DNA from: Candidatus Methanomethylophilaceae archaeon
Lineage (GTDB): Archaea > Thermoplasmatota > Thermoplasmata > Methanomassiliicoccales > Methanomethylophilaceae
Assembly (NCBI GenBank): GCA_944320495.1
Contig: CALUHR010000008.1
Coordinates: 32,001-96,000, forward strand
Length of the DNA: 64,000 nt
Direction of reading: 5' to 3'
Shown here: one piece after another, positions 28,941 through 51,410 of the stretch
Layout of the letters: each line of letters starts with the position of its first letter
Position numbering within the stretch: position 1 is the first letter of the stretch
Position numbers and translations under genes: made by a program
Notes under the pieces: model-generated
Databases searched by the model: none
What the model was told of the DNA's origin: nothing
Seen by the model: only the letters and a program-made list of their open reading frames with translations

Positions 28941-29156
28941 ACCGGACGAGCCGGTTAGTTAACGGAGAACGTTCGGTGCAAATATCCCATATTATAAATA
29001 ATGTATCCGAAAAAGTCCATTTGTTGACGTCTCAATCTCCATTGTCTGGCACATGCCTCTGGATGTCTATGCCTGTACGCATGCGCCACATATGGTATTA
29101 AATAGTGATTACGTCGAATCATTCCCCGGGTCCTAGACCCAATAGGAGGAAAACAA

Positions 29157-31205: not shown

Positions 31206-31212
31206 GGAGTCA

Positions 31213-32301
31213 TCGGAATCCGAACAGAGCCTTCGCATTGTCGACATGCTCCTCCGCATCGAGATGGAACGGACACCTCGAGGTGCACCTGCCACAGTGC
31301 AGACAGTCGGAAGCGTGCTTCGACAGAGCCCTGTAGTGCTCCCAGGCCATCTCGTCGCCAACGGCGAACAAGTCGCTGAACTTGTTGACCTTCCCGATGT
31401 CGATGCCTGCGGGGCACGGGAGGCAGTGGTTACAGTAGACGCACTGGTCCTACATGTCCGCCGCCGTCAGGCCGCCGATGAACGAGTAGTCCCTCTCCTC
31501 CCTAGAAGCGTCTAGGTACGAGAGCATAGCCTCGAGCTGTCCGACTGAGCCTATTCCCGGGACCACGGACACTGCCCCGGGGCGGTCCAGCGCGTACTGA
31601 ATGCACTGCGCCGGGGTCATCGCCCTCCCGAACGGGGAGGTCTCGGCATCCATCAAGATGCCTCCCCCATAGGGCTTCATCACGACTATCCCGATCCCCC
31701 TGCGCTCGCAGTCGCGGTAGAGCTCCAGCCTCTCGGGGTCCATCACGAGGCCGTTGTCCCCGGCCACGAAGTCATAGGTGGGATTGAGGCTGAGCATGAA
31801 GTCGTCGACAACCGTTTCCTCGATGAAGCGCCTGCATATCTCTGGGGTGTGAGACGTGAACCCGATGTTGTCCACGCGCCCCTCGTCCTTCCATTCGACC
31901 AGCATGTCGTACAGCCCATCGGACATGATGCGCTCGTAGTCCTGGGCCTCGTCGACGCAGTGGAAGAGCAGCAGGTCGGCGTGATCGAGACCGTACTTCC
32001 TCAGCTCGGTCTCGAAGGACTCGCGGCACTCCTCGGGGTCCCTCGTGGCCGCGTACTGACCTCCTGGGTAGTGTACGCCGGTCTGCAGCTGGAACACCAT
32101 CCCGTCTCCGTGCTCCCTGACGGCCTCCCTGATGGCGGGAGCGCAGGGGTCGTCATACATGGAGGTCTCCATGAAGTTGACGCCTGCGTCCATAGCCTTC
32201 GATACGATGGTGTGGACATCGTCACCCGCATCCCTGAGGAAGCCAGATCCAAGACCCAGTGCGCTGATCCTTTTACCGCTACGAAGTCTCCTGTACTCCA
32301 T
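31213..32301 (-). CDS. Aldo/keto reductase with 4Fe-4S domain, containing an in-frame TAG (likely Pyl); ends CGA-TGA
   Basis: After TAG (31452-31450) the frame continues DQCVYCNHCLPCP...CLHCGRCTSRCP, collinear with the paralog at 26130. 362 aa with readthrough versus 367 aa for the paralog. Confidence 0.88.
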
Positions 32302-32414
32302 GGGAACACCTACTAGTGACTGCATGTCAGCTATCTCCCGTATAATTACTATGTGGTCACGCTCACGAGAAGACGACATCGATATAACCGCACATAGCGT
32401 CCACCTCATCAGAC

Positions 32415-33614
32415 ATGGGGCAGGACATGTGGTGGCTGATGCACGGCGACATATCCGTCGCCTCGGTTCACATCGACAGATACGGTCATCTGACATCATT
32501 GGGAGAGATATTCGATGAAGATCATCTGCCAGTCGGTGTGAAGACCGGTGACAGGGAGCACACCCTCGAAGGACTCGATCGCTGGTGGTCGAAGCGCGCG
32601 ATACCCATCTCAAGACCCGGCGTGTCAGCCATGTTGGAATCCATGGGGATCGCATCCACGGAATCGCTTCAGATGATGTCCAAGGGACTGGGCCTCTCGG
32701 ACTCCTATTGGATCCGTCCGGAAGGATCGGACCTGTCATGGTCGGACGTGAACTTCCACGATAACGATTTCTCCGAGGAGGTCGGCAACGCCCTGTTCAA
32801 CCATGGCACGACCGACGTCCTGAACTTCGACTCCCCGGACTCCTCCTCGGACGGCAACCTCAGGAAGAGATGGGTGATCGAGGATGGGGTGAGGATCCTG
32901 ATGAAAGGCGGGAGCGGCCAGATGCAGGAACCGTTCAATGAGGTCCTTGCATCAGAGATCATGCGTCGCCTGGACGTACGGCACGTCGACTACAATCTGA
33001 GATGGGTTGATGGCGAGCCGTTCTCCGTCTGTCCAGCGTTCACCGACAGCCGCACCGAGCTCGTGCCTGCCTGGTCCGTGCTCGCGACGTGCAAGAGAGA
33101 AGATGGGGAGACGCTTTACGACTTCACGAGACGCTGCTTCGAGTGCTGCGGACTGAAGGACCCCACCGCTTCCCTTGAGAGGATGATTGCCGTTGATTTC
33201 CTGATAGCGAATGAGGACAGGCACCTCGGGAACTTCGGTCTGCTCCGCGACCCCGAGACTCTGAAAACCAAGGGGTTCGCCCCGCTGTACGACAACGGGG
33301 CCTCGCTGGGGCATCGCGTGATCACGCTCTGGATAGAGGAGGGTTACGACCTGATCTGCCGGCCGTTCAAGGTCACCCACGGAGAACAGATCCATCTGGT
33401 CAGGGACCTCGGATGGTTCGACCCCGACAGGCTGGAGGGCATGGACGACTTCGCCAAGGATCTGTTCGATGGGTCAAAAGGGTTCGTGGACGAGCGCAGG
33501 AACAAGGCGATCATCGGATTCCTACAGAGAAGGATCGACAAGCTCGCCCAGTACGCCGAGAGTCCGGACTTCCGGGACGACCGGCACCTGGACCTGAGAG
33601 TGGTAAGCGGCTGA
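32415..33614 (+). CDS. HipA-like Ser/Thr kinase 1
   Basis: DSYWIRP, DGNLRKRW, NEVLAS, NEDRHLGNFG, APLYDNG. Confidence 0.85.
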   Translation: MGQDMWWLMHGDISVASVHIDRYGHLTSLGEIFDEDHLPVGVKTGDREHTLEGLDRWWSKRAIPISRPGVSAMLESMGIASTESLQMMSKGLGLSDSYWIRPEGSDLSWSDVNFHDNDFSEEVGNALFNHGTTDVLNFDSPDSSSDGNLRKRWVIEDGVRILMKGGSGQMQEPFNEVLASEIMRRLDVRHVDYNLRWVDGEPFSVCPAFTDSRTELVPAWSVLATCKREDGETLYDFTRRCFECCGLKDPTASLERMIAVDFLIANEDRHLGNFGLLRDPETLKTKGFAPLYDNGASLGHRVITLWIEEGYDLICRPFKVTHGEQIHLVRDLGWFDPDRLEGMDDFAKDLFDGSKGFVDERRNKAIIGFLQRRIDKLAQYAESPDFRDDRHLDLRVVSG

Positions 33615-33699
33615 TGGTCGAGGCTATTCGGCGATCTCGTCCTGGACTCGTCTGTCTTCCTGTGACCCTGTCTCTTCGACTTCATATTACCCGCGGATG

Positions 33700-33843
33700 G
33701 CCTAGCTGACCAACTTCTCACGGAGAACCGTTTGTTCCCTTCCTCATCCGTAGCCGTGTGGGCCTCAACACAGGACATACGGTCACCGTGCCTGGGGCAC
33801 TCTGTCTCGGGGCAGTCGCAGTTCAGTTGAGCTCCTGAGCCAT
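33700..33843 (-). pseudogene. Possible small Cys-rich gene relic with a 5-nt duplication frameshift
   Basis: ATG GCT CAG GAG CTC AACTG AACTG CGAC...; removing one AACTG gives MAQELNCDCPETECPRHGD..SCVEAH. Confidence 0.3.
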
Positions 33844-34066
33844 GCGAGATGGGATGGAGCATCAGGATAGACCTGTTTCCCGGACGGCGTATCTCGTCTT
33901 TCGTGTGCCGACACCTGCTGTACGGACTCCTGAACAGAGTTGATATTGTTATCATACAATGCTTAATGACAATTTTTGATTAATAAATTGGATTAAGATA
34001 TCACATAAATTAATAATGTATGGTGATTGAGAAGATAGGATAAACCCTCGCGACATACGGTCATCC

Positions 34067-35236
34067 GTGTCGGAGGGACGTTTTCAGCTCATGCAAGGGG
34101 ACCACCGGGTCGCAGAGGTGTGCATCTCCGACAACGGCATTATGACGGAGCTACGTGAGATGTTCGATCCGGAGAGGATGCCCTGGGGGACCATTGGCAC
34201 CGACCCCGGCGATACCATCAGAAGGCTCGGAGAATGGTGGGGATATCGCTGCATCCCGAGGAAGAGGAACATCCAGGACGCACTGGGTCGCCTCGGATTC
34301 AGCTCGAGCGAGGCGCTCATGACCGCTGGCCTGGCGGTCAACATGACGGACCGCTACTGGATCCGCCCGAACGGGAGCGGCCTGTCGTGGGACGATGTCA
34401 GCCCCCACACCAACGACTTCTCCGAGACGCTGGGCAGGACGCTGCTCGGTAAGGGGGACGGGTTCGAACCGTCTCCGGACTGCGCCACCGACGGGATGGT
34501 CCCGAAGATGTGGACATCGGAACGTCGCCTGCTCAAAGGCGGGACGACCCGCTGCAGGCAGCAGCCGTACAACGAGGTCCTGGCCTCGGAGGTCATGAGA
34601 CGCCTCGACGTGGAGCACGTCGATTACGATCTGAGGCGCATCGACGGGAAGGTTGTCAGCTCGTGCCCGTGCATCACCTCAGAAGGGGTGGAGATGATAC
34701 AGGCCAGATGTCTGATGATGACCCGCCCGATGGACAGGTCTAAATCCATCTACCACCACCTCATGGAGAGATGCGGGAGCATAGGCCTCGTGGACCCGAA
34801 GGACTTCGTAGACAGGATGCTCGTCGTCGATCACATCATGGCGAACAACGACCGGCACTACAACAACTTCTCCATCCTCAGGGACCCGGAGTCGCTAGAG
34901 GTCCTCGGCTTCGCCCCCATATACGACACGGGCTCGTCCCTGGGCTACGACCTCCGGGTCGGGGACATCTCTGGATCGGAGACGAGGGGCAGGACGTTCA
35001 AGGCACGTCTCGACGACCAGTTGCTGCTCCTCGGGGACACGGACTGGATCGATCTGGACGCTCTCGAGGGGATCGACTCCTTCGCCCGTCGTCTGATGGG
35101 AGGCTCGGAAACGGTCTCGCCCGAGAGGGTGGAAGCGGTCGTAGAGCTCCTGCTGTCCCGTATCGAGTCGCTGAGGGACCGCATCGAGAATCCACGCGGA
35201 TTCCGCGACGAGCCGTCCGAGGACATACCGGTCCGA
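34067..35236 (+). CDS. HipA-like Ser/Thr kinase 2; ends at CGA
   Basis: DRYWIRP, DGMVPKMW, NEVLAS, NNDRHYNNFS, APIYDTG. CGA at 35234-35236 falls at about the paralog's C-terminus (389 aa). Confidence 0.85.
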
Positions 35237-36642
35237 TCGTCGTGTTGTCAGCAAATGTCGTCAATAATTCTCACTGCGAACTTGGAGAGCACCAGCTTAC
35301 GTTCCTGCATGCGAATATCTTGTCTCAGATGTGTAGCTAATATAATTTATCTGATAGCTATTCTTGATTAATTAATTTTAAACTATTCCCATTCATCTCT
35401 GAATACAGCGAAAACATTGTTTCAAAGGCGCAGAGACTCGATTCAACGATGAGACGTATTCAACCGATCATGGGATTATCAGCATCCATCGGGCAACGGG
35501 ATGATGTCTTTGTCATGCGGATGGTGGCCCTTGCATTAGGGCGGACAGTGGAGCCGTCAGTCCAGGTTCATCGATTGTTCAACCGTGTTGATGAAATCGA
35601 CTCTACACTCATGTTCGATCCATGGCCGTCTCCAGTCGATTAGGAGGGGTGTGGAATCCAACTCGGGAATCATCAATCCTTCTGATGGAAAGAGACCCCA
35701 TGCATTGCAAGATGTCCGACCTACAGTGATCAACCGGCAGATCATATCAGAGCAGATGGAACCAGACCGATGTATCCGGATCTAGATCGGATCGGACGAC
35801 GTCAGAAAGGCAGAGGAGCCACTTCTACCTCACAGCAATGAGCTGATGCACTCGGACATCGACTCTGTTCCGCATGCACGTGGGATGTCTGCGGCGCTCA
35901 TTCTTGCTGTCTACATGAAACCTGATATCGGAGCCTCTCGAAGACGATACCGAAGACTCGATGCATTGTATCGATACAAATCAAGTGTATTAAGATATCA
36001 ACTTAATTAATTACAAATAGCAAACAAAATGCAGAAACCTGGTGCAAAATTTAATTAATTGAGGTAGAAAAAGAGGAAGATATCGGGGTCGATCGGAGCG
36101 GCTTCGAAACCCCTCGAAATCGCACGAAAACCCCACCCTTTTCGGTGATTTTCCGGGATCCCAAGTACACATTCGGGAGGCCGTCGTGGACACGAAGGTG
36201 CCCAAAAACCGATGATTTTTCCAAATCGGATCCATAAATGAAGATTTTCTGCCTATGTGCAGAAAATGACCCTGAAATGTGCGATTTGCACTAGATTTTT
36301 GAGAAATTCTTCATATTCGAGAATAAATGATGAAATAACGATATTTGCTTTATTTTATTAGTACCTGTGAATCCTATTGGGTTCCTTCCGGGTACAATGC
36401 AACGATACTCGAAAAATGACGTTTTCAAATGATAAATGGAGAATTCATTAAAATCTGAGATTAATAAATGTAATAAATGCTCTAGCTTTATTTTATAAGC
36501 ATTCTGTATGGATTCAAAGAACGAATGCAAAGATGTGAGATTAATCAATGAAGTAAAGTTATCTACTTTACTAATATCGATAAAATAAGAAATGAGGGTT
36601 TTAGGGCGGAACTGCCGCGTAGAGACGATTCCGCCCATGGAA

Positions 36643-37833
36643 TCAGAGTTCGTCGCGCAGGTACATCATCATCCCCTGCAGGGAGTTGAGCACCTGGGAG
36701 TATCCGTATTCGAGCTGAGCCTCCTCGGGCGTCAGGGAGCCGACGTACTCGTCCTGATGCCGGGGATCCCTGGATTCGCTGAGGACGGTGATGATCCTGC
36801 GGAATCCGTCGAGGACGCTGTCGTGGTCCTGGAAATCGATGGAGAGGATCGCATCGCACACCGAGATGTCGGTCTTGAGGAAATCGACGATGTCGTCGCA
36901 CACCTCGAGCGGTATGTCCCCGTTGACCGCCGAGTCGAGGAACAGATCGATCTTGGAGTCCTTCATGTCGCGGACGCGCTGTATGATGTCGACCTTCTCC
37001 CTGCTGAGGAAGGCGCCCTGCGCATTGCCCTGCGTTTCGACGGCGGCTTCGTCGGCGGGGGCCTCTTCGGGCTCGGGTTCGGAAGCGGGGATCTCGGATT
37101 CGGTCCCTTCGACCTCTGCGACAGGTGGTTCCTGCTCGACCGGTTCCGGTTCGGCAGAGGGAGCCTCCGGCTCGGTGACCTCCTCCTCGACAGGGGCCTG
37201 CGCCTCCTGGACGGGTTCGGCGCTGTATGCCGACTCTAGGACGGAGAGCTTCTGCTCGGCGAGCATGAGGTCGGTCTTCAGGGAGGCGATGGTCGCGCGT
37301 AGACTCCCGTTCTCTTCGGAGAGACGGTCGCGTTCCGCCTCGGCCTCGGACAGCTGGTCCCTGGCGGTCTGGGCGTCACCCCTGGCGAATTCGAGCTCGG
37401 ACGACATCTCATCCACGCGGGCCCTGCAGGACTTGAGTTCATCCATCACGGATGCGAGGGCATCGCTGTCATCGTGAGCGTTGAGCGATTCGGCGGCCTG
37501 CCTGATGATCTCGCGGACGCTGCCGAGCAGCTCGTCGTCGAATCCCTCCACGGTCGGTTCCGATTTGAGCGCATTGAACGCATCCTCGTCGGCCCTCTCC
37601 GACGAGGAGAGCCTCGACAGGTATTCCGGGGAATCAAGGGGATCCAGCTCGATGGCGGTTTCGCCCTCGGTGTCCAGGAGGGTATCGCAGGCATCGATGT
37701 CGTCCCCCAATGAGACGATGATATCGATGTACGTGTCGACGTTGGAGCTGTCGATCTTCGCCATCGAGGCGAAGACCATGATCTCGTTCAGCTTACGGTC
37801 CCTTACCCTGGTGATCAGGTTTGCATCCCACAT
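36643..37833 (-). CDS. Hypothetical acidic coiled-coil protein
   Basis: C-terminal part of track ORF 36643-38667, from ATG 37833 (MWDANL); E/P/A-rich linker; ends TGA. Confidence 0.65.
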   Translation of the reverse strand: MWDANLITRVRDRKLNEIMVFASMAKIDSSNVDTYIDIIVSLGDDIDACDTLLDTEGETAIELDPLDSPEYLSRLSSSERADEDAFNALKSEPTVEGFDDELLGSVREIIRQAAESLNAHDDSDALASVMDELKSCRARVDEMSSELEFARGDAQTARDQLSEAEAERDRLSEENGSLRATIASLKTDLMLAEQKLSVLESAYSAEPVQEAQAPVEEEVTEPEAPSAEPEPVEQEPPVAEVEGTESEIPASEPEPEEAPADEAAVETQGNAQGAFLSREKVDIIQRVRDMKDSKIDLFLDSAVNGDIPLEVCDDIVDFLKTDISVCDAILSIDFQDHDSVLDGFRRIITVLSESRDPRHQDEYVGSLTPEEAQLEYGYSQVLNSLQGMMMYLRDEL

Positions 37834-37893
37834 GAGGCACGAATCGTGTCGATGTGATATAGAGTTGCGGATGCGTATTCGCTTGAATCGGAT

Positions 37894-38667
37894 TCGAGGC
37901 GAGAGGCTGCGGTCGGAGGAGAGCGGATAATCTGAATTGAATGCGCATCTGGCGTACATGGCGGCCACATATCTGGGCATCTCCCTGCGGAAGGCCGTGA
38001 GCGCATCGGATTCCTTCATGTCCAGGACGTCGCCGAACATGGAATCGAATCCCTCCTCGGACACCGTGCCCAACGAGATGCAGACCTTCGAGATCTCGGA
38101 ACTCTCGACGTTGCCGAGGGAAGCGATGCGAAGCAGCACGGAGCACTCTCTCCTGGTGACGGAGATGTAATCGGTAATCCCCTCCAGTATCTCCGGGTCC
38201 TGTCCAGAGCAGCGTTCGGACGCGCGGTCCATGAGGTCCATGACACGGCGGAACACCAGGGAGTCGCTGTCTGTGAGAGAGCATTCCGGCCTCCCATCGC
38301 GGAAGATGTCCAACGCCATCATGAGCAGCGGGGTCTGGCCGGTGAGCTCCTGTATCATCCAGACGAAATGACCCTCGTCCTCCATGTCCTCCCTGTCCAG
38401 CCTGTCGAGATAGGAGGAGAACATCTCCGTCGGCATGGGAGGGCATCCCTCGGTCAGGGTGTCCATCATCTCCTCGAACTCTGTCAGGTCGTTGACTCCG
38501 ATCTTCGCGATGCACCGGGCGTAGTTGATCTGTCCCGCAAGGATCCTGACCTTGATCGACCTCTCAGTCTCGCTCAGCGACTGGTCGAACGTTGCGGCGG
38601 CTATCTCGCAGCTCTTGCGGACGATGATCCTGCGCAGAATCTGTATGTCGAGATAGTCGAATAACAT
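37894..38667 (-). CDS. Hypothetical protein (257 aa); ends at CGA
   Basis: N-terminal part of the track ORF; four in-frame CGAs in the following AT-richer linker. Confidence 0.62.
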
Positions 38668-38815
38668 GTTCTCTCACTCCTTTGCATCAATTAAATCTTG
38701 TAAAGCTATCACATGAATTATTCTATATTTATCATCAAGCAATCTTCTAATGCAACCTCATCGCGAGATGCGTTAGGGCCCCCATCGGAATCCGCTATAT
38801 CAAATGGCTGGGGAA

Positions 38816-40525
38816 TCGGTCGATCCGTGGAGGGAACAGGATCTTCACGGTGTCCCCGTCGGTGGTTATGCCCTCCGATACCTCTACACGCAGCATCCTA
38901 CCGTCGGGATGCTGGACTATGTCACCATCCGATAAGTCCTCGTCTGCCGCCAGGATGTGGTAGAGCAGGTCGTTCATGAACGTCAGGAGCGTATCGGGTC
39001 TGTCGCGGCATCCCACCGTCTCTACCTCGAGCTTGCCGAACAAGTGTAGCCCGCAGGTGTAGGACCTGACCTCACCATCGCGGTGGGACAGCCCCACCCA
39101 GACCCAGTCCCCAATCGGAAGGGCGCCGTCCCTGATGGACTCGGCTTCACGGACGTAGTCGTCAGCGCTGATGACTGCACCGGGGATGTACACCCCGATG
39201 GTGCCGGGCTGCCTGCAAACGGCCGAGACGATCTTGGTGTGCAGGGTGGCGGCCGCGATGCAGTCGCTGCCGTGATTCACCAGGGCGACCATGATGTGGG
39301 CCCTGTGCTGCCCGACCCTGTCGCGGGCATCGGGCCAGCGGTAGTTGTTGAGGGCGTTCTCCTCCGCCTCCCCGTCGGGGACGGGTCCGGAGGTCTTGCT
39401 GATGATGACCAGGTCCCCGTCGCATTCGAACGTGAGGTTGGACCCGTCCGTGCTGAAACGGCAGCGTATGCCCCATTGGGACACGAGGTCGAACTGTATC
39501 CTGTCCGGATCCCACGCGTCCTCCTCCAGTAGGACCATGGCGATGAACGGGCCACCCCTGTCGCGTGGGACATCGAGGGACATCCTCTCGTCGAACGATG
39601 CTATGACGGGCTCCTGTCCCCCGTACCCGGCGAAGCTCAGGAACGACCTGAGTCCGCGGTCTACGCTGACGGCATACAGCGGCCTCCCCTCCACCCTCCT
39701 GCCGAGAGCGGCGCGGGCGGCGTCCTCCATGTCGGGGATGGCGTCGATGATGCGCCTGATGTCCTGCACCGGGATCTTGGACAGGTACGCCTCGTTCATC
39801 ATGAGGGTCACGAACACCGACCCCCCGGGGAGGTCCATCACGTAGGTGCAGTATGGATGGTCGGCGATCCAACCGGCGGGGCGGAGGGCTTCCTTGACCT
39901 CGCGGAGCCCTTCCGGGTCGACCATAATGCCCTTGACGGCCTCGACGGCGGTCCGATCCGGGGAATCCTCCCCGGGCTGGCGGGACTCCATCTCCTCGAT
40001 GGTCCTGCATGCCTCGATGTCACCCATCAGAGCGGTGAAGTCCGGATCCGCCGGAACGAGATCGAGGCCCCTCCTGGCGGCGGAGAGGGCCTTGGAGCGG
40101 TCCCCGTAGTGGCAGTAGAGCCTTCCGAGGGTCAGCCAGTTCCAGGGATAGGAGGGTTCCTCGTCGGTACCGCGGAGGAGATACTCCATGGCGAGACGCG
40201 GCCTCCCGCAGTACATGAGGGCGTTGGCGTACCTGTAGAACCACACGCCACAGCCGCGGGCCAGGTCCTCCACGTCGGAGAGCCACTGGAGGGAGGTCCT
40301 GAAGTGCTCATAGTCTCCGATGTTGTTGCAGGCGTAGGCGATCATGAGCGCCACATCAAGGTCATGATGGGCCTGCCTCTCGGTGAACCTGCCCTCCGAC
40401 ACGCCGACTGCTATGATGCGGCCGATGCAGTCGAGCATGCCTTCGAAATCTCCGGACGAATCGTCCTCGTAGGACTGTATCTCTCTGAAGTCCTCCGGAC
40501 GGAGGACTCCTCCGAGATCGTTCAT
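38816..40525 (-). CDS. TPR-module + DUF4261-like protein; ends at CGA
   Basis: WFYRYANALMYCGRP TPR-like module; C-terminal HRAHIMVAL, YTCGLHLFGKLEVE. CGA at 38818-38816 precedes the track's TAG. Confidence 0.65.
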
Positions 40526-40633
40526 GGTCTTCCATATCGACGGAAAGGTAAAAATCCGCTTCGGTTCGTCTACGTTTGAAGGGATGGAAGTCGTGAGCGA
40601 TTATGTAATTGATGACCTTTGATGCATGGCCGT

Positions 40634-41545: not shown

Positions 41546-41639
41546 CGGCCCGCGATTGACTGCGACGGTTAAAACAGTTCGTCAGGGCCGTTCAGTGTGA
41601 CTGCGCCAAGGTTAGATAGTATCCGTCCATTGCGCGGTC

Positions 41640-42980
41640 ATGAAGCACGAAAGGATCCTCGCCGTCCATGACATCTCATGCGTCGGCAGATGCTCGCTGA
41701 CCGTCGCCCTCCCCATAGTATCCTCCGTAGGGATAGAGTGTTCCGGGCTCCCCACGGCCGTGCTGTCGACCCATACCGGCGGATTCACCGGGTACACCTA
41801 CAGGGACCTCACCGAGGACATGGTCCCCATAGACGAGCACTGGAGGACCCTGGACATAAAGTTCGACGCGTTCTACACCGGGTTCCTCGGATCCTTCGAG
41901 CAGATAGATATCGTCTCCAGGCTGTTTGACGACCTCAGCCACGAGGGCACCACCATCTACGTGGATCCCGTCATGGCCGACGGCGGGAAGCTCTACCCCG
42001 TCTTCGGACCCGACTTCCCCAAGGGAATGAGGAGGCTTTGCGAGAAGGCGGACGTCATCATGCCCAACCTGACCGAACTTTGTCTGATGCTCGACGAGGA
42101 GTGGATCCCCGGCCCGTACACCCACGAGTACGTGGACTCCATGATCGAGAAGGCCCGCGGGTTCGGCGTCAGCAAGGTCGTCCTCACCGGGATCAGCTTC
42201 GAGGAGGGGCAGGTCGGCGCCGTCTACAGGGACTTCGAGACCTGCGAGACCGGATCCGTCATGCGTGCGGAGATCCCCGGATACTACCACGGGACCGGCG
42301 ACGTCTTCGGATCCGCTCTGGTGGGGGCGTGCGAGTGCGGGCTCCCGCTCTCCAAGGCCGTGGAGGCAGCGGTGAACCTGACCGTGAGCAGCATCATCCG
42401 TACCTATGAGTCCGGGGAGGACGTGAGGTACGGCGTCAACTTCGAGATAGGCCTCCGCGACTACATCGCCGAGGTGGATGCCGGCCGTCCGGTGAAGGTC
42501 CGTCCCGCAGTGTCCGACTGGGACCTGTCGATAGTCGAGGACATCGCCAGAGAGGTCTGGACCGAGGCCTACGAGGGCGTGGTGCCCCGCGCACAGACCG
42601 ACTACATGGTCGAGAAGTTCCAGACGGTTCCCGCCCTCAGGGAGCAGATCTCCCGCGGTTACACCTATCTGCTCGTCACCGTCGACGGGACTCCAGCGGG
42701 ATACTGCGGATACGTCCCCGACGACAGGGGCCTGTTCCTCTCCAAGATCTACATCAGGAAGGAGTTCAGGGGAACCGGCCTCTCCTCCCGCCTGTTCGAC
42801 ATCCTCCGCGTCACCGCCAGGACCATGGGCAAGGACCGCGTGCATCTGACGGTGAACAGGGACAACGCCCGCGCCATCGCCGTCTACGAGCACGAGGGCT
42901 TCTCCGTCTCCGGCACCGCGGACACCGACATCGGCGAGGGCTTCGTGATGAACGACTACCTGATGGAGATGAGGGTCTAA
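41640..42980 (+). CDS. pdxK: Pyridoxal kinase fused to a C-terminal GNAT domain
   Basis: VHDISCVGRCSL, VDPVMADGG, PNLTE, YHGTGDVF, then LSKIYIRKEFRGTGL..NARAIAVYEHEGF; ends TAA. Confidence 0.88.
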   Translation: MKHERILAVHDISCVGRCSLTVALPIVSSVGIECSGLPTAVLSTHTGGFTGYTYRDLTEDMVPIDEHWRTLDIKFDAFYTGFLGSFEQIDIVSRLFDDLSHEGTTIYVDPVMADGGKLYPVFGPDFPKGMRRLCEKADVIMPNLTELCLMLDEEWIPGPYTHEYVDSMIEKARGFGVSKVVLTGISFEEGQVGAVYRDFETCETGSVMRAEIPGYYHGTGDVFGSALVGACECGLPLSKAVEAAVNLTVSSIIRTYESGEDVRYGVNFEIGLRDYIAEVDAGRPVKVRPAVSDWDLSIVEDIAREVWTEAYEGVVPRAQTDYMVEKFQTVPALREQISRGYTYLLVTVDGTPAGYCGYVPDDRGLFLSKIYIRKEFRGTGLSSRLFDILRVTARTMGKDRVHLTVNRDNARAIAVYEHEGFSVSGTADTDIGEGFVMNDYLMEMRV

Positions 42981-42985
42981 GTCCC

Positions 42986-44674
42986 ATGTTCATACCCACC
43001 ACCAGGGAGGAGATGGACCGCCTGGGCTGGGACCGGGCGGACATCCTGCTGGTCTCGGGTGACACCTACACCGACAACTCCTACAACGGGACCGCCCTGG
43101 TGGGCCACTGGCTGATGGACCACGGGTACAGGGTCGGCATCATAGCACAGCCGAGGGTCAACACGGGGGAGGACATCTCCCGCCTCGGCCGCCCCAGGTT
43201 GTTCTGGTCCGTCTCGGCCGGATGCGTAGACTCCATGGTGGCGAACTACACGCCGACCAGGAAGTTCCGCAAGGAGGACGACTTCACCCCGGGAGGCGTC
43301 AACGACCGCCGTCCGGACAGGGCCTGCATCGCCTACACCAACCTGATCAAGAGGCACTGCAAGGGGGAGCCGGTGTTCCTGGCGGGCGTCGAGGCCAGTC
43401 TCAGACGCATCGCGCACTACGACTTCTGGTCCGACTCCGTCCGCCGCTCCGTGCTCTTCGACGCGAAGGCCGACGGGATCGTCTACGGGATGGGGGAGCT
43501 GACCAACCTCCAGATCGCCGAGAGGCTGGATTCCGGCGATGACTGGAGGGACCTCCGCGGCGTCTGCCACGCATCCTCATCGAAACCGGACGGATGCGTG
43601 GAGATGCCCTCGTACGAGGAGGTCTCCAGGAGGGACGATCGGAGGGCGTTCATGAGGGCGTTCTCCATCCTGAGGCACAACTCCGACCCCGTCACCGCGA
43701 GACAGCTCTGCCAGGCCCACGGGAACCGCTGGCTGGTGCAGAACCGCCCCCAGAGGTGCATGACCACGGAGGAGCTCGACGCGGCCTACGAGTCCTCCTT
43801 CGAGAACAGGGTCCACCCCTTCTACGCCGGAGGCGGACGCGTCGCCGCCCTGGACACCGTCAGGAACTCCGTCACCACGCATAGGGGATGCTACGGGGAC
43901 TGCTCCTTCTGCGCCATAGCGGCGCACCAGGGGACGACGGTCGTCTCGAGATCGCACGACTCCATCATGAGGGAGGTCCGTCGCATGGCCGCCTCCGAGG
44001 GTTTCGACGGCGTCATACGCGATGTGGGAGGGGCCACGGCCAACATGTACGGGATCGAATGCACCAAGAAGCTCTCGAACGGGAGGTGCGAGGATAGGAG
44101 ATGCCTCGGAGGGAGACCGTGTCCGAGGCTGCCGATCGACCACTCGGAGCAGATCCGCCTGCTGGATGACGTATCGTCGGTGGACGGTGTGCGCAGAGTG
44201 TTCATCGCCTCCGGCATAAGGCACGACATGGTGCTCGCGGACAGGCGCAGGGGCGGGGACTACCTGGACAGGGTCGTCTCCGAGCACGTGTCCGGACAGA
44301 TGAAGGTCGCCCCGGAGCACGTGTGCGACGATGTTCTCAGGCTGATGGGCAAGCCCGGCAGGGATGCCCTGCTGGGATTCAAGGGCATGTTCGACGAGTG
44401 CTGCAGGGAGCGCGGGAAGGAGGAGTTCCTCACCTACTACCTGATGGCCGCGCATCCCGGATGCACCCGGGACCACATGCGCGAACTCGCATCCTTCTGT
44501 ACCAGGGAGCTCGGCACCCATCCCGAGCAGGTGCAGGTCTTCACCCCGACCCCTTCCACGTATTCGACGGCAATGTGGTGGTGCGGCACCGACGAGAGGG
44601 GCCGTCCGGTGACCGTCGAACGCTCCATCCAGGGCAGGCAGAGGCAGAAGGAGATGGTCTGCGGGAGGCGCCGA
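42986..44674 (+). CDS. ygiQ: YgiQ-family (UPF0313) radical SAM protein; ends at CGA
   Basis: GDTYTD, GCVDSMVANYT, GVEASLRRIAHYD, RGCYGDCSFC, QVFTPTP. CGA at 44672-44674 overlaps the next ATG. Confidence 0.92.
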
Positions 44675-45345
44675 TGGACGCCTGTCTCTCCCGCTTGGTC
44701 TCCGAACGCTGCGGATGCGAGGTGGACGCTTCGTTCATCAGAAGGAAGGAGTTCCGCTTCGCATGGGGCACGCGCGACGGACGTCCCGTCATCCAGATAT
44801 CGGACTATCTCCGGGACGCCCCGGACCAGGTCCTGACGGACTTCGGGGAGATGCTGGTCCGTCGCTCCAGGAAGCAGAGGACCGCCGTTCCGGCGTCGTT
44901 CTGCGAATACGTGGCCACCGACGACTTCGTCATATCCCGGAGGCCCACCTACATCGATCGCAGCAGGAACCTGCTCCGCACCGACATCGGGGACCACGCC
45001 TTCATACCGGACTCGATCCAGAGGCTCCTGGACGCGGGGCTGCTGACACCCGAGGACATTCGCAACTCCTGGTTCTCCTGGACCCGCAGGGACAACCTGC
45101 GCAGGCTGGGGTTCTGCTCCACGCTGTTCCGTGTCGTGGGGATATCCTCTGCCCTGGACTCGCCGGAAGTCCCGGATTCCATCAGGGACTATGTGGTCTA
45201 CCATGAGTGCCTGCATCTCAGGCAGGGATACCGCCCCGGCGGGCGCATCCATGATGCGGAGTTTCGTCGTTGGGAGCGCTCCTACCCCGGATGGAAGGAA
45301 TGCGAGAACGCCCTTCGCACCCTCCACCGCCGGACAGGTTCTTGA
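44674..45345 (+). CDS. M48/YgjP-like zinc metalloprotease-domain protein
   Basis: DYVVYHECLH (HExxH) and HDAEF; ATG in the CGATG overlap. Confidence 0.75.
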   Translation: MDACLSRLVSERCGCEVDASFIRRKEFRFAWGTRDGRPVIQISDYLRDAPDQVLTDFGEMLVRRSRKQRTAVPASFCEYVATDDFVISRRPTYIDRSRNLLRTDIGDHAFIPDSIQRLLDAGLLTPEDIRNSWFSWTRRDNLRRLGFCSTLFRVVGISSALDSPEVPDSIRDYVVYHECLHLRQGYRPGGRIHDAEFRRWERSYPGWKECENALRTLHRRTGS

Positions 45346-45367
45346 ATGACGAGCCGATTCGGCATCC

Positions 45368-46243
45368 ATGGAGCAGAGAGGCTTCGTGTTCCACGGAACC
45401 GACGGAGAGGCCGTGTACAGCATAGACCAGGTCAGGGAGCTCGCCTCCCGCGACGATCCGGACGGGGTGTACGCCCTCGCGATGGCATACCTCTTCGGAT
45501 GGGACGTCGAGGCCGATGAGGACAGGGGATACGATCTTCTCGAGAAGGCAGTGGGGCTCGGACAGACCGACGCCATGGCCCTGATGGTCCGCCTGTACAT
45601 GCAGAACGAGTACGACGGCATCGACAACGAGCGCGCCGCCGAACTTTCGATCACAGCGGCCAAGGACGGCATCCCCGAGGCGCAGCTCTATGCCGGCCTC
45701 GCCTACATGGACGGGGTCTCCGTACCCCAGGACTATGCGGAGGCGTCCCGCTACCTGTCCCTCGCGGCCAACCAGGGCGACCAGGAGGCCAGGACCGCGC
45801 TGGCGTACCTCTACGAGAACGGCCTGGGCGTGGGGAAGGACGAGGCCAAGGCATTCTCCATGTACAGGACGGCCGCCCGCGGAGGATGCGTGAACGCCAT
45901 GTTCCACGCCGGCATCTGCCTCGAGTTCGGCATCGGCACCAAGGCGGACCCCGACAAGGCCAAGGGATGGTATCTCGAGGGCTCCAAGGGAGGGGATGCC
46001 TTCGCCATGGAGAGGCTCGGCCACCTGACCCTCGATGAGGATCCCGGGGAGGCCTTCGAATGGTTCCTCAAGGCCGCCCTCGAGGGTGTGACCACCGCCA
46101 TGGGGACCGTCGGGTTCTGCTATCTGAACGGGGTCGGGACGGAGGCCGACAGGACGGAGGCCGTGAAATGGCTCCGCATGGCGGCCGACAACGGCATCGA
46201 GGAGGCCTCGGAGGCGCTCTCCGAGCTGGGGGGTCGCCACCGA
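45368..46243 (+). CDS. Sel1-repeat protein; ends at CGA
   Basis: Repeated AQLYAGLAY.DG..V.QD..EA units; CGA at 46241-46243. Confidence 0.85.
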
Positions 46244-46304
46244 TGGGGAGCGATCCCTCTGCCAAGAAAGTTAAAGCAGTGAGTGCATCGCCGTGGCGAT
46301 TCCA

Positions 46305-46973
46305 ATGACCGCAGGCGATTCTCTCGAGACCATGGCGGCTGGGGGAGACCCAGATTCGCAGTTCCAGCTCGGCGTCCAGTACCTCTACGGCACCGGCGAC
46401 ACCCCCAAGGACGCCTCCAAGGCCGCCGAATGGTTCAGGAAGGCCATGGAGAGCGGACATGTCCCCGCCATCAGGGAGTACGGGATTCTCGTCGCATCCA
46501 GCGAGGGCGTCGAGGCCGACCCGGAGGAGGGGGCACGCATCCTCGGAAGGGCGGCCGACGAGCTCGACCCCAGCGCGATGTACCATCTCGGCCTGATGTA
46601 CGAGAAGGGCATCGGCGTGCCCGTGGACATGCAGAAGGCCGTCAGGCTCCTCGCTTACGCGGCCATGATGGGCTATCCCGGCGCCGACATCGACGCACAG
46701 CGCATCGATGACATCCTCACCGAGGAGCGCAACAGGCGCCTGAAGTCCAGGCCCGTCATCAAGCTCATGCTCTCCGACGTGGACGTGGAGGCGGCCTGCT
46801 GCCCGAGGATGCTTGACGACCTCCTGGCCCAGAGGACCGTTTTCACCGAGAGCGAGGAGGGCCCCGCCCTGCTCGGCGACGACGCCCAGGGATTCGAGGC
46901 CGTCTTCCACGCGTGCCCCTACTGCGGAGCTCCCATCCAGATCGTTCCGAGGGACAAGCAGTACTTCGGATGA
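46305..46973 (+). CDS. Sel1-repeat protein with C-terminal Cys-containing domain
   Basis: SQFQLGVQYLYG, AMYHLGLMYEKG; C-terminal CCPRM...CPYCG. The start may instead be GTG 46293. Confidence 0.8.
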   Translation: MTAGDSLETMAAGGDPDSQFQLGVQYLYGTGDTPKDASKAAEWFRKAMESGHVPAIREYGILVASSEGVEADPEEGARILGRAADELDPSAMYHLGLMYEKGIGVPVDMQKAVRLLAYAAMMGYPGADIDAQRIDDILTEERNRRLKSRPVIKLMLSDVDVEAACCPRMLDDLLAQRTVFTESEEGPALLGDDAQGFEAVFHACPYCGAPIQIVPRDKQYFG

Positions 46974-47927
46974 TCGCATCCGGGCGGCCAGGAACTCGGC
47001 CGCCTCGGGGCATCCTATCTCGGATGACAGCCTGATCAGCCCCATGCCCTTGCGCTCGTCGGCTTCGATGCCCTCCCCGTTGAGGTACATCAGCCCGAGC
47101 ATGAATATGGCCAGTGGATCCCACGATTCCGCCGCACCCCTGAAGAGGCTTCTGGCGGAGCCGAGGTCCCTCTCCACCCCTAAGCCTGAATAGTACATCA
47201 TCCCCAGCGTGAGCATGGACTCGCGATCGCCGCGTTCCGCCGAGCATGACAGCATCCGGGCGGCCAGGACCTCGTCCTTCGCGACGCCGTCGCCGTACAG
47301 GTAGCGGAGGCCGATCTCCCTCAGCGAGTTGGGCTCCCCGTGCGATGCGGCGATGCCGTACCACTCCACCGCCTTTGCCGGATCCTTCCCCGTCCCCTCG
47401 CCGGTCTCGAACATGCGCGCGACGTTGAACATCGCATCGACGTTGCCATGGTCGGCGGATTTCGAGAAGAGGGCGAACGCCTCAGACCTGTCCAGACGTG
47501 TGCCCCAGCCGTTGTAGTACAGGATCCCTAGGTTGCACTGCGCGCCCGGATGGCCCTGGTCGGCGGCAAGTAGATACCACTTGGCGGCCTCCATCTTGTT
47601 GACCGGTATGCCGAGACCCTTGTCGCAGATGTAGCCGAGTCCGTACTGCGCCTCGGAGTACCCCTGGTCCGCTGCTTTGCGGTACCAGTGGATGGCCTCC
47701 GTCGCATCGGCCGGCATCCCGATCCCGTTGAGCAGGAAGTAGCCGTAGGTGTACTGCGCCTCGGCATATCCGGAACGGGCGGCATCGGAGATGAGGGAGA
47801 CCGCCCTCTTCGGGTCCCTCTCGACGCCGTCGCCTTCGTAACAGCGTCTGCCCAGAATGTACTGCGCCTCGGGATCGCCGCGTTCGGAACGGGCGGTCAG
47901 CTCCAGGATGGAATGGCCGTCGGACAT
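46974..47927 (-). CDS. Sel1-repeat protein; ends at CGA
   Basis: About eight Sel1 units (AQYILG, AQYTYG, AQYGLG, AQCNLG...). CGA at 46976-46974 abuts the convergent gene's TGA. Confidence 0.88.
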
Positions 47928-48084
47928 ATGACCATAAACCGACTATCTCCAATTAATGATGTCTGTCGAACTGGGACGCATCCATCGTTCCAGGATGGGA
48001 CAGTCACCCATCGTCGGCTGATCGCACGGATCCCACGCGTCTTTCGATGCAGAATCTATATGTCCGTACTCCATTCCGAATCCC

Positions 48085-48642
48085 ATGGCAGACCCACAGA
48101 CCGAGGAGTACACCCTGGAGGAGGCCGCTGCGATCATAGAGGCGGCCATCGACAGGAAGAAATCTGAGATTGAGTGCCTGCGGAAGCGCGCGAACCGCCT
48201 CAAGAAGGAGGAGAAGGTCAACGCCAACCGCCAGCTCGTCGCCTATCTCGAGGCTGACGTGACCGCATACACCACCGTTCTCGCCGACATGCGCGACGAC
48301 GACGCCCTCCTCGAGGGTCTCGACCTGGACGCCGAGCCCGTGGAGGTCCCGGACGACTACCAGGACTACATCGACGGACTCTCCGCGGACGACCTCGAGA
48401 ACGAGATGGACGCGGAGTCCATCCGCGCCGACTACTGCGACGCCGTCGTCGAGGAGATGTGCACCTCCATCGGCGAGCAGGCCCTCAGCTCCAAGAAGAT
48501 GGTGAAGGCCCTCCTGGAGGACCCGTACGCACTGGAGCAGATCGGCGAGGTCGTGTTCTACGACGACTACCTCTACGACCTCTTCAAGACCATCTCCGCC
48601 GAGAAGGCTGAGAAGAAGTCCAAGAAGAAAAAGAAGAAGTGA
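48085..48642 (+). CDS. Acidic hypothetical protein with Lys-rich tail
   Basis: 185 aa, D/E-rich, ends KKSKKKKKK; strong coding-type codon usage. Confidence 0.7.
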   Translation: MADPQTEEYTLEEAAAIIEAAIDRKKSEIECLRKRANRLKKEEKVNANRQLVAYLEADVTAYTTVLADMRDDDALLEGLDLDAEPVEVPDDYQDYIDGLSADDLENEMDAESIRADYCDAVVEEMCTSIGEQALSSKKMVKALLEDPYALEQIGEVVFYDDYLYDLFKTISAEKAEKKSKKKKKK

Positions 48643-49337
48643 TCCCGGTGCCCGCAAGCAAGTACGAGAGGGAGCTGAGATTCATCGATTCCGAGGTCGC
48701 CAGGCTCAACCGCGGACTCAAGGACCTAGCGGAACGCATGCCCGACAGCCCTTCAGAGGCGGCCAGAAAGGCCGACGAGGTTCTGGGCATCCAGGACAAG
48801 ATCGCCACCCTGATCGCCAGGAAGCGCGAGATCGAGGACTCCTTCATCAGGGCCGGGATGGACGTCCCCGACATCGGACGCAGCATGAACGCCACCGTCC
48901 ACAACGCCGGGGGATTCGAGATCCACGGGACCCAGGAGGCGGAGACCGTGGCCGGCCTTAAGCCGACCCAGATGTCCATCGAGGGCATCAACGAGGACAT
49001 CCGCAGCATCAACGCGGAGCTCGCCTCCATCGAGGACCGCCGGGTCGCCGCCGAGATCGAGGGCGACTCCGACGAGGTCCAGAAGCTCGACATGATGGCA
49101 TCGTCCCTCCGTTCCAGGAGGGACTCCCTGATCCAGTCCGCCAGAGAGATCCGCTCCGCCCCCAAGGAGGAGGAGCCCTCGCAGGTGAGCGGCGAGGATC
49201 TCGAGAGGATCGCCAGACTCGAGTCCGAGACGGCCTCCCTGCGCTCGCAGGTCTCCGACGTGAGGAACGGCCTGCAGGACGTCAAGGAGCAGCTCAGGCA
49301 GATCATGCTGGCCCTGGGCATCGAACCGGACGAATGA
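48639..49337 (+). CDS. Coiled-coil hypothetical protein
   Basis: GTG start in a GTGA overlap; heptad-rich sequence. Confidence 0.65.
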   Translation: MIPVPASKYERELRFIDSEVARLNRGLKDLAERMPDSPSEAARKADEVLGIQDKIATLIARKREIEDSFIRAGMDVPDIGRSMNATVHNAGGFEIHGTQEAETVAGLKPTQMSIEGINEDIRSINAELASIEDRRVAAEIEGDSDEVQKLDMMASSLRSRRDSLIQSAREIRSAPKEEEPSQVSGEDLERIARLESETASLRSQVSDVRNGLQDVKEQLRQIMLALGIEPDE

Positions 49338-51410
49338 TCGTCCCTCCGCGGCCTCGATGAGGCCGCGGATCAACTCCCCTTCCCTTGCGGACCAGAAGCC
49401 GACGTCACATACCACGACGAGTCTGCGTCTGGCCCTTGAGACCGCCGTGTTGATCACCCTTCTGCCCATCGGCGTCTCCGAGCTCGTGAACCTCAGGGGG
49501 ACGTCCCTGTTCACGGTCCCGCTGTCCGCCACGCTGAGCACCACCGTGTCCCATTCCCTCCCCTGGGACCCGTGGACGGTCATCACGCAGTCTGAATACC
49601 TGCGCCCCACCTTGGACCTCAGGAGCCTGCACTGCGCCGTGTAAGGCGAAAGGACGCACACATCCGAGGGGTCTGGCGACGAAGCCTTCAGCAGCCTGGC
49701 TATGGCATCCGCCTCCGCCCTGTTCTCGCGGGTGTCGCGCTCCCCGCAGACGACGTCGATGCACTCTATCGACATGTCCGTCTCCGAGGAACCGGTCATG
49801 CCGTTGCGGTAGACGTAGCGGTCCAGGACCCTGGCGAGGGATTCCCCGAACCTCCTCGAATCTGTCAGGTCCCTGCGCACTGTGACCGAGAAGGACGGCC
49901 CGGAGCCGGAGATGTACTCGGCACGCAGGTCGATCAGGCCTCTTGTGAGGACGGTCTCGCAATGGAGGGCGGACATGTTCCAGATGAACGCATCGGAAAG
50001 CCATCCGCCCGACTGAGCCCTGTCCATGAGCAGGGCCTCGTCGAGCTGGGTCACCGGCGGAAGCTGCATGTGGTCCCCGAACATGGCCACCGGCACGCCG
50101 TTGGTGAAGAGGGCGAGCGCCTGCACCAGGCCACAGTATCCGGCCTCGTCGAGGAATATCCTGTCCACGTCGAGCTCCATCCTCCCGTCCTCGGGGGAGC
50201 CCTTCGGACGGAATCTGGAGATGAACTGGTGGGGCGTCGCCGCGATTATCGGAGCACTGGCTATCCTGTTCCCGGTCGACCTGGACCTCAGCACGGACAT
50301 CTCATCGTAGAGCCTGGAGATCTCCGCCGATATCTCCTCCGCGCTCCACTCGCCGTACTCGGAGATCTCCGCCGCCGGACGCTCGCGGTCGAAGAGGGCG
50401 GAATGGAGCTATCTCGCGGCCTCCGACAGCGGTACGCCCTCCGACATTATCGCGGCGGTCGAAGGGCGCATGGAAGCCACCGTCATTATGTCCCCGATGA
50501 TGCGCTCCCTCTCAGGATCACCGTCGGCATACCCCTCCGCATCGTCCAGGATCCCGGCGGACGTCAGGTGCTCGAGCTGGGCCCTTACGGAATCGCAGGC
50601 CCTCTCGTAGAGGACCTCCTCGAGATTCCCGATGGACCTGGCACATCCGTCTATCCTCATCTGGGCCTGGTTGTCCTCGCACATGTCCGGATGCTCCGCG
50701 AGGAACCCCTTCGTCGGGACGCCCAGCCTGACTATCCCCTTCGGGACCCCGTCCTCGCCGAACGCCCCCAGGATCCCCCTCAGCACCTGCTCGACCGAGT
50801 TGTTGGTGGGTGCGAACACCGCGACCCTCTCACCGGCCTCGAGACAGCCGCGGATGCAGGATGCCAGAACGAACTGGGTCTTGCCCGTGCCCGGGGCCCC
50901 CCAGACATACGACATCGACGACGAGGCGACCGCCAGGGCCGCCGATTCCTGCTGTCCGGTCGGGACGCCGGGATATTGCGGCTCGACCGTGTTCTGAGGC
51001 TCGCCGGGGGCTCTGACGTAGGCCCCGTACCTGCGGTAGAAGTCCCCCGCGGCCAGTACCAGGAACTTCATGTCCGCGAGGACCGAGATCCTGGCACCCT
51101 CCACGGACATGACGCGGAGGACCTCGGCATCAGGCCTGACCACGATGGTCCTCGAGATCTCGTCGTACCTCGTGAACCCGGCATCCTGCTCGCCCAGGAC
51201 CCTCTCGCCTATCCTGAGCAGGAGGCCCGAGGTGTCGCTGAGGCGGGCCGCCAGATGCAGTATCGCGAAGCCCTGCCTCACATCGGCGGAGGTCACCAGG
51301 GTCTCGGACATCCCCATCGGTGGATCCGTCACCCACTGCATGTCCTCCATGTAGCGGTAGACGGCATCGGCCGATCCGGAGAACACCGCTGATATCTCTT
51401 CCCCATCCAT
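49338..51410 (-). CDS. Upf1/DNA2-like SF1B helicase with an in-frame TAG (likely Pyl); ends at CGA
   Basis: GAPGTGKT lies before TAG 50411-50409; DEAG, GDHMQLPPV, TVHGSQGREWD and NTAVSRAR lie after it in the same frame. 690 aa with readthrough. Confidence 0.85.

Follow-up and report, generated by a model that had tools for sequence, protein, structure and literature searches.

Several systems are known in which codons at or near the ends of genes depart from their standard meaning. In Genetic Code 34 all TAG codons encode pyrrolysine (Pyl), which proteomics has confirmed for two archaea, including a Methanomethylophilus species, and the genera assigned to this code are Methanomethylophilus, Methanogranum and Methanoplasma (Kivenson et al., bioRxiv 10.1101/2024.09.30.615893). 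In vertebrate mitochondria AGA and AGG serve as stops, which are released by mtRF1 (PMC9810596). For CGA, it was shown that yeast eRF1/eRF3 misdecode this codon (Wada and Ito, 2018, PMC7379694), and a CGA stop was raised as a possibility, which was left open, in two archaeal assemblies from hydrothermal vents (Melnykov, bioRxiv 10.64898/2026.04.02.715157). Here, we describe the meaning of TAG and CGA in a stretch of 64,000 nucleotides (the window), which corresponds to C8:32001-96000 of an archaeal genome (G000) and contains two genes with an in-frame TAG, encoding an SF1 helicase and an aldo/keto reductase. The data fit a code in which TAG is a sense codon and TGA, TAA and CGA are stops, as claimed in a first-pass annotation of the window, and this reading of the code is well supported at the level of the sequence. 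Two independent code changes probably underlie it, TAG having become a Pyl codon and CGA a terminator that would be leaky due to a competition between the archaeal release factor aRF1 and a tRNA-Arg(UCG). The TAG half follows the known pattern of Genetic Code 34 and finds good support in the comparisons described below. The CGA half is without established precedent outside organelles in the literature searched, which contained no paper on a CGA stop in this lineage.

The source genome (1.77 Mb in 14 contigs, 61% G+C, 90.6% completeness) is, judged by its genes, a Methanoprimaticola-like member of the gut Methanomethylophilaceae (Methanomassiliicoccales), the closest named relative in a scan of its aRF1 against named genomes being Candidatus Methanoprimaticola sp. 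MG2 (91% aRF1 identity). This affiliation agrees with the lineage guessed in the first-pass annotation, which named Methanomassiliicoccales among the groups with established Pyl decoding of UAG. In the following, g1 denotes its genus, G007 to G090 denote relatives and the other g and f codes the genera and families compared. Ab initio calling with TGA, TAA and CGA as stops and a minimum of 80 amino acids resulted in 52 tightly packed genes in the window, of which 28 end in TGA, 21 in CGA, three in TAA and none in TAG. This agrees with the claim of the first-pass annotation that no gene of the window needs TAG as its stop, although its count of 55 complete genes was higher, probably by inclusion of shorter ones. 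Sixteen of the genes lie in the piece 31213-51410, nine ending in CGA, six in TGA and one in TAA. Genome-wide, a gene set for which all four stops were allowed comprised 1551 open reading frames (ORFs) of at least 80 amino acids, with 1101 TGA, 375 CGA, 52 TAA and 23 TAG ends; CGA ends about 24% of the genes, and the gene coverage of the genome increases from 75% to 85% once CGA is counted as a stop. The key codons of the window (TAGs, CGAs and overlaps) were checked directly in the sequence.

The first-pass annotation had stated that TAG occurs in frame inside two genes of the window, which was borne out, and both genes are intact. The gene of the SF1 helicase (AAA_11/AAA_12) comprises 690 codons at 49338-51410 on the minus strand, carries a single in-frame TAG as codon 334 (50409-50411) and ends at a CGA (49338-49340). 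Its Pfam domains extend across the TAG, and the coding signal is kept over the 356 codons past it (log-odds +85). The alignment with about 35 orthologues of the genus (47-59% identity) covers residues 1 to ~688; with one exception they are devoid of an internal stop, and their open frames span 700-750 amino acids. The frame under the standard code would comprise 893 amino acids in G000, running antisense over the neighbouring gene, so that the length of the orthologues fits an end of the G000 helicase at the CGA and not the 893-residue frame. At this CGA the helicase gene abuts the convergent gene 48639-49337 (plus strand, TGA), TGATCG (49335-49340) holding both stops back to back. The TAG is specific to the lineage of G000, the orthologues having a sense codon at this position. 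A single in-frame TAG of their own is present in a helicase orthologue (G087:C14:35109-37163) and in a helicase paralogue (G088:C47:23492-25459), suggesting a repeated drift of TAG into this family within the genus.

The second gene, at 31210-32325 on the minus strand, encodes an aldo/keto reductase with a 4Fe-4S dicluster part. It contains one in-frame TAG as codon 292 (31450-31452), presumed to encode pyrrolysine, and runs to a CGA (31213-31215) that is followed by TGA (31210-31212). The Pfam match Aldo_ket_red lies before the TAG and the Fer4 domains lie after it, placing the TAG between the two domains, and every cluster cysteine past it is intact. In the alignment, the TAG takes the place of a linker residue that varies (S/E/E), and the first cysteine of the Fe-S motif follows two residues later. 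The homologues are uninterrupted at this site, both in G082 and G090 and in a paralogue of 40% identity located 5 kb away (26130-27233, plus strand), which has no TAG and ends in TGA. Among 90 genomes of the family no close orthologue of the TAG-containing reductase was found. At both window TAGs an insertion of Pyl is predicted.

The genome encodes most of the machinery for such decoding. The genes pylS, pylC and pylD adjoin on contig C9 with scores above the cut-offs, and pylT lies directly upstream; pylT escaped an Rfam scan of this region and was recognised by reading the sequence (anticodon loop CUCUAAA). The Pyl cassette, on which the first-pass annotation had made its proposal depend, thus exists as pylT-pylS-pylC-pylD, with pylB not found in the 90.6%-complete assembly. 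G058 and each of the four genus relatives tested do have pylB, so that its absence is likely due to an incomplete assembly. Moreover, G000 carries two mtmB and two mtbB methylamine methyltransferase genes with one canonical in-frame TAG each; one mtmB copy (C3:56058-57410, plus strand) has the catalytic in-frame TAG plus a CGA end, and its frame under the standard code is 702 amino acids long.

TAG directly follows only 23 of the 1551 ORFs. In 12 of these 23 cases a strong coding signal goes on for 99 to 1635 codons past the TAG, with a census threshold of a signal kept for at least 30 codons, and the window reductase is added as a thirteenth internal TAG by homology, giving at least 13 genome-wide, among which are those of the two mtmB and two mtbB genes and of the window helicase. 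A terminal-like TAG is found in at most 10 of the 1551 ORFs, and most of these frames reach another stop within 0-20 codons. At the ends of orthologues in ten species of the genus TAG was found in 0 of 408 cases, compared to 7 of 18 in the sister family f2 and 7 of 19 in f3. Given this usage in f2 and f3, the few TAG ends of G000, with coding sequence beyond 12 of them, are more than a chance pattern. TAG does not end conserved genes elsewhere in the genome, which the first-pass annotation had named as evidence against its reading. In three genes on contig C2 the positions of in-frame TAGs are kept between species. The census rests on the count in the gene set; an all-frame scan for TAGs that follow a coding signal returned 163 sites and was dropped, as these were mostly antisense frames with several TAGs.

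TAG might also be ambiguous, encoding Pyl under an ample supply of Pyl-tRNA and acting as a stop otherwise, and be kept rare with back-up stops nearby. Such a dual meaning of UAG was shown experimentally in Methanosarcina acetivorans (Shalvarjian et al., PMC12626013), and it would be in line with the unchanged motifs of aRF1 and with the approximately ten gene-end TAGs that have a further stop behind them, of which five belong to well-scored genes. However, under frequent termination the mid-gene TAGs of the helicase and the reductase would yield mostly truncated products, none of the orthologue ends in the genus is a TAG, and there is proteomic confirmation of Genetic Code 34 for a Methanomethylophilus species, a member of the same group of methanogens. 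We regard ambiguity as possible but doubtful, and a sense codon that is essentially never relied on as a gene end as the better description of TAG in G000.

Counted over the ORFs of the standard code, in-frame CGAs number 6-28 in each of the middle deciles but 269 in the last one. Exactly at this codon the coding log-odds drop from +0.30 to -0.49 per codon and the G+C content at third codon positions (GC3) from 0.87 to 0.62; no drop in coding signal is seen when CGG, AGA, CGT or CTA are aligned likewise. At the positions of the terminal CGAs of G000 the orthologues from ten species of the genus, from other genera and from other families have TGA, TAA or TAG at offset 0 ±1, and terminal CGAs at the same positions recur in independent assemblies. 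Furthermore, the stop/start (-1) overlap CGATG is found 39 times genome-wide, three times in the window; its counterpart at TGA stops, ATGA, is found 228 times. A T follows 55% of the CGA stops versus 29% of the TGA stops. In the 1.77 Mb only four CGAs have a coding signal on both sides. Two of these lie between adjacent genes, and the other two, at Arg81 of aRF1 and in the gmhA-gmhB linker, are the sole conserved frames through a CGA genome-wide.

In the window, the clearest terminator of this kind is that of the Nre gene (18152-19441, plus strand; CGA 19439-19441). The Nre_C match, over profile positions 3-110 of 110, extends to residue 428, CGA being codon 430, while the ORF under the standard code would add 343 domain-free codons across the next gene. 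A similar situation is found for an AAA ATPase gene (8003-9043, minus strand; CGA 8003-8005), in which AAA_21 and AAA_15 reach the profile end at residue 331, CGA is codon 347 and the standard frame goes on for 109 codons. The two ORFs of the window that end in TAG under the standard code have a CGA shortly upstream, in agreement with the first-pass annotation. In the first, 27933-28958 on the plus strand, the serine recombinase gene (Pfam Resolvase and Recombinase; 28083-28958) has CGA at 28938-28940, five codons before TAG at 28956-28958. The start codon of this gene, at 28083, shares bases with the CGA stop of the gene before it (CGATG 28081-28085) and is also where the Resolvase domain begins. 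In the second, a TPR/DUF4261 gene (38795-40525, minus strand), CGA at 38816-38818 lies six codons before TAG at 38795-38797; the CGA is codon 570, and the last residue of the DUF4261 match is 562. Homology is compatible with either end of this gene, and the choice is therefore made by the behaviour of CGA genome-wide. The other CGATG overlaps of the window lie at 44672-44676 (plus strand), between a radical-SAM gene (42986-44674) and the next gene, and, of the same type, at 52931-52935.

These data also bear on whether the pattern is produced by errors or decay, the CGA ends being T-to-C assembly errors and the window TAGs fresh pseudogenes. CGA ends are 4-5 times commoner in G000 than in samples of its relatives and both window TAGs are lineage-specific, which speaks for this view. 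However, CGA stops occur on every contig and no fixed flanking motif that could attract errors surrounds them, which argues against a base-calling artefact. Moreover, independent assemblies contain the same terminal CGAs and the CGA of aRF1, CGA is missing from gene interiors in relatives too, and the sequence past both TAGs is intact and coding. An artefact is thus hardly credible.

A change at the level of the mRNA would leave a similar trace, if C-to-U editing turned terminal CGA into UGA. Stop-creating CGA-to-UGA editing occurs in plant organelles. A single C/T exchange separates CGA from TGA, the dominant stop, and the orthologues mostly have TGA where G000 genes end in CGA. Yet, since CGA is purged from gene interiors, every CGA would need to be edited, which equals a CGA that means stop, and the CGA of the aRF1 gene would have to escape. 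In addition, an abnormal tRNA-Arg(UCG), which is kept under selection, points to the ribosome rather than to the transcript. For these reasons editing is considered very improbable.

The tRNA-Arg(UCG) is kept in every g1 genome examined, the copy of G000 being located at C13:413317-413390. Its anticodon arm is unusual. In 11 genomes of the genus positions 31 and 39 form a mismatch (C·A, A·A or U·C), and covariation is seen in the acceptor stem and in the other pairs of the anticodon stem; in the subclade G015/G008/G007/G084 the anticodon loop reads CCUCGAC, with C33 instead of U33. Outside g1, tRNA-Arg(UCG) is canonical both at the 31-39 pair and at position 33. Most copies of the genus also have a D-loop that is two bases shorter than in other tRNA-Arg genes. 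The divergence of these genes affects their detection: a BLAST search with the G000 tRNA missed divergent copies and a pattern search returned tRNA-Glu(UUC), so that a covariance model was used. An apparent loss of the tRNA from the subclade G015/G008/G007/G084, suggested by the BLAST result, was dropped once the covariance model had found a divergent gene. From sequence comparison, the change in the meaning of CGA appears to track the anatomy of this tRNA and the presence of a CGA at Arg81 of aRF1, and not the motifs of the release factor.

A poorly functioning tRNA could by itself leave CGA as an unassigned, hungry codon, at which stalled ribosomes would be cleared by aPelota/ABCE1 and peptidyl-tRNA hydrolase without a release factor. 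The abnormal anticodon arm, the unchanged aRF1 motifs and the presence of a pelota-like gene are all compatible with such a rescue. However, a quarter of the genes would depend on it, the 39 CGATG junctions and the bias in the next base resemble ordinary termination, and the eukaryotic homologue eRF1 can release at CGA. Rescue of stalled ribosomes is therefore an unlikely explanation, and termination by a release factor is favoured.

G000 encodes a single aRF1, a second match of the search being pelota-like. The first-pass annotation had proposed that the loss of UAG recognition and the gain of CGA are coupled changes in this one factor, a model that the comparison of 68 Methanomassiliicoccales aRF1s does not support. 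The NIKS motif, the GT(E) loop and YxCxxxF (LYRCDSTFF) are identical in relatives with CGA as a stop and with CGA as a sense codon, and no g1-specific change was found in any of the three motifs among the 68 sequences. The only genus-fixed substitutions that are absent elsewhere are A20D and S/Y145C, and neither lies in a known codon-contact motif. These two substitutions and the existence of only one aRF1 are what would be expected from a single altered factor. Moreover, the position x of YxCxxxF corresponds to L123 of yeast eRF1, which sets second-base discrimination and of which R/F/Y variants favour UGA (Saito et al., 2015, PMC4482090; PMC7379694). In yeast, a single terminal CGA suffices for detectable release by wild-type eRF1, and L123R/F/Y enhance this (PMC7379694; PMC4482090), so that changes at L123 shift the specificity from UAA/UAG to UGA and CGA together, and G000 has Arg at this position. 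However, Arg is present at x in all 68 aligned aRF1s and is with 68 of 123 diverse archaeal representatives (55%) also the commonest state among archaea. Arg at x was therefore rejected as a lineage-specific adaptation that ties UAG loss to CGA gain; it may at most be a predisposition to release at CGA. Many of the distant aRF1 representatives (P0011, P0028, P0032 and others) are 700-1450 amino acids long and matched the query in two to three stretches, the N-domain and then residues from ~186, which looks like inteins or other large insertions.

The distribution of the two traits also speaks against a coupling. The avoidance of TAG extends over most of the family. It includes g22 (0 of 34 TAG ends, with 17 sense CGAs) and g17, in both of which CGA stands for Arg; in g20, by contrast, TAG ends persist (4 of 24) and CGA is almost missing. 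The two changes are therefore phylogenetically uncoupled. Furthermore, relatives of lower GC content use TAA freely, which is not expected from a release factor specific for UGA. As a consequence, a single altered release factor is rated as quite unlikely, and the TAG and CGA changes appear, on these alignments, to be two separate changes of the code.

Against this background, the gene of aRF1 itself is of interest. It contains an in-frame CGA at the invariant Arg81 ('AARLKTY') in 25 of 26 g1 genomes and in all 36 named aRF1 genes of at least 82% identity, in which the CGA is always followed by C, and in these g1 and named genes it is the sole CGA. More distant aRF1s of the family nearly always have one or a few CGAs at conserved arginines of the N-domain, at codons 14, 28, 30, 53 or 81, even in genera whose coding sequences are otherwise almost free of CGA. 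The CGA in the aRF1 gene may accordingly be older than the wide use of CGA as a stop. A second frame through CGA is found at C13:193618-194718 (minus strand), where gmhA (SIS isomerase) and gmhB (HAD phosphatase) share one frame with a CGA alone between them; no separate start codon for gmhB occurs over 45 codons, and its end is again a CGA. Both form an uninterrupted fusion ORF in G053, with Lys at the position of the CGA between them. The arrangement in G000 may represent a programmed read-through of CGA giving two products.

The codon positions, the stops of the orthologues, the Pyl genes, the anatomy of the tRNA and the conservation of aRF1 are direct observations, from which we infer a mechanism of release by aRF1 at CGA, tRNA attenuation and a feedback loop. 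In this mechanism TAG would be read by the Pyl-tRNA(CUA); it would have been retained where the methylamine methyltransferases need it for catalysis, have drifted into ordinary genes and essentially never be relied on as a gene end. At CGA an ordinary aRF1 would outcompete the weakened tRNA-Arg(UCG), especially when U is the next base, making CGA a leaky stop and not a codon of a re-engineered release factor. The leak at Arg81 of aRF1 would exert a negative feedback on the level of the release factor, and a leak is probably also used at the gmhA-gmhB linker. The complete proposal of an unlisted code with TAG as Pyl and CGA as a leaky stop, a weakened tRNA-Arg(UCG), sensing of the aRF1 level at Arg81 and a feedback that may predate the use of CGA as a stop is put forward tentatively, as a serious candidate in which we place less confidence than in the two code changes as such.

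Among the relatives, the change of CGA can be followed by its occurrence inside orthologue alignments. There CGA is common, mostly at Arg, in the families f2-f7 and in the genera g21 and g22 and is about zero in most other genera of the family. Samples of 120-200 kb contain essentially no interior CGA in the case of G015 and G082 (both g1), G058 (g15), G044 (g13) and G053 (g14), and sense-like interior CGAs persist in g17, g19, g11 and g12. With identical gene calling, CGA ends make up 32% in the G000 sample, 6.6% in G015, 5.5% in G082 and 4.7% in G058. G000 is thus a heavy user of CGA stops and the extreme case within a wider clade that is purged of CGA. Samples of 20-60 kb around the aRF1 gene were too weak for an ab initio test of CGA, as few genes there end in this codon in any of the genomes. 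The single-gene aRF1 tree (quick mode) does not resolve the order of events outside the genus.

Several points weigh against the reading of two independent code changes. Both window TAGs are lineage-specific and might conceivably be recent nonsense mutations. The aRF1 motifs show no sign of a lost reading of UAG, UAG has its dual meaning in Methanosarcina acetivorans, pylB is missing from the assembly, and approximately ten TAGs lie at or near gene ends with a back-up stop. The first-pass annotation had described amber as fully sense; its use as a sense codon stands, but 'fully' cannot be proven from DNA alone. For CGA, the cognate tRNA-Arg(UCG) is kept, which is unusual for a sense codon turned stop, and the usage of CGA stops is uneven, with 24-32% in G000 versus about 5-7% in the samples of G015, G082 and G058. 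Finally, every step rests on DNA comparison.

The surroundings of the TAG-containing reductase differ from the rest of the window. Between 32001 and 40000 the G+C content decreases to 56-57%, compared to about 61-63% elsewhere. This region and its left flank contain the serine recombinase (28083-28940), a HipA-like gene (34067-35236) and the reductase, which is unique to G000, as well as two ORFs without Pfam matches (36643-38667). This may be an integrated mobile element.

If CGA truly ends genes in this lineage, this would be the first sense-to-stop code change in a cellular, non-organelle genome, and it would have occurred on top of a stop-to-sense change, from TAG to Pyl, in one organism. 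Public annotations would then be wrong for about a quarter of the proteins of these methanogens, which are common in the gut, with false C-terminal extensions, fusions and missed genes, and TAG-containing genes would be truncated. The apparent independence of the two changes together with the correlation to the tRNA offers a concrete and testable route by which a sense codon may be captured by termination. As pairs of pyrrolysyl-tRNA synthetase (PylRS) and tRNA from this family serve genetic-code expansion, their native decoding context is also of practical interest.

Compared to Genetic Code 34, G000 has pylT, pylS, pylC and pylD, many internal TAGs with homology on both sides beyond the methyltransferases and essentially no reliance on TAG as a stop, and it belongs to the same family of gut methanogens. 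However, Code 34 retains the two stops TGA and TAA, to which G000 would add CGA as a third; the codon CGA has no occurrence in the text of Kivenson et al. Moreover, Code 34 is backed by proteomics, and the reading of G000 by sequence comparison. With AGA/AGG in mitochondria, CGA shares that an Arg codon at frame ends acts as terminator. In the mitochondrial case two genes of an organelle are affected, the cognate tRNA is missing and a paralogous release factor is dedicated to the task, in contrast to a free-living cell with ~375 affected genes, which keeps an abnormal cognate tRNA and has one aRF1 without remarkable features. The vent archaea are similar in that CGA is missing from recognisable domains, but they belong to another lineage, CGG is read as Trp and no tRNA(UCG) was found; gut Methanomethylophilaceae are not mentioned in that study. 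A mechanistic parallel is found in yeast, with the same codon, homologous factors, a release factor set against a poorly decoding tRNA-Arg, and Arg at x in the enhancing variant. In yeast, release at CGA is a weak side reaction on reporters, whereas in G000 it would be routine for a quarter of the genes.

Finally, an archaeal release-factor gene that contains its own new stop would be a natural analogue of the autoregulation of bacterial prfB. In prfB, a +1 frameshift takes place at an in-frame UGA. Further circuits are the read-through of plant eRF1 (PMC5397192) and the release-factor genes of giant viruses that carry their own stop signal (PMC3521657); for archaeal aRF1, no autoregulatory circuit is described in the literature searched. 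Like these circuits, the aRF1 gene would carry the factor's own terminating codon in frame, conserved in the clade (36 of 36) and in a context unlike that of most real stops. Unlike these circuits, the codon is a former sense codon, and its recoding would be plain decoding by the tRNA-Arg(UCG) that has been kept, with no frameshift.

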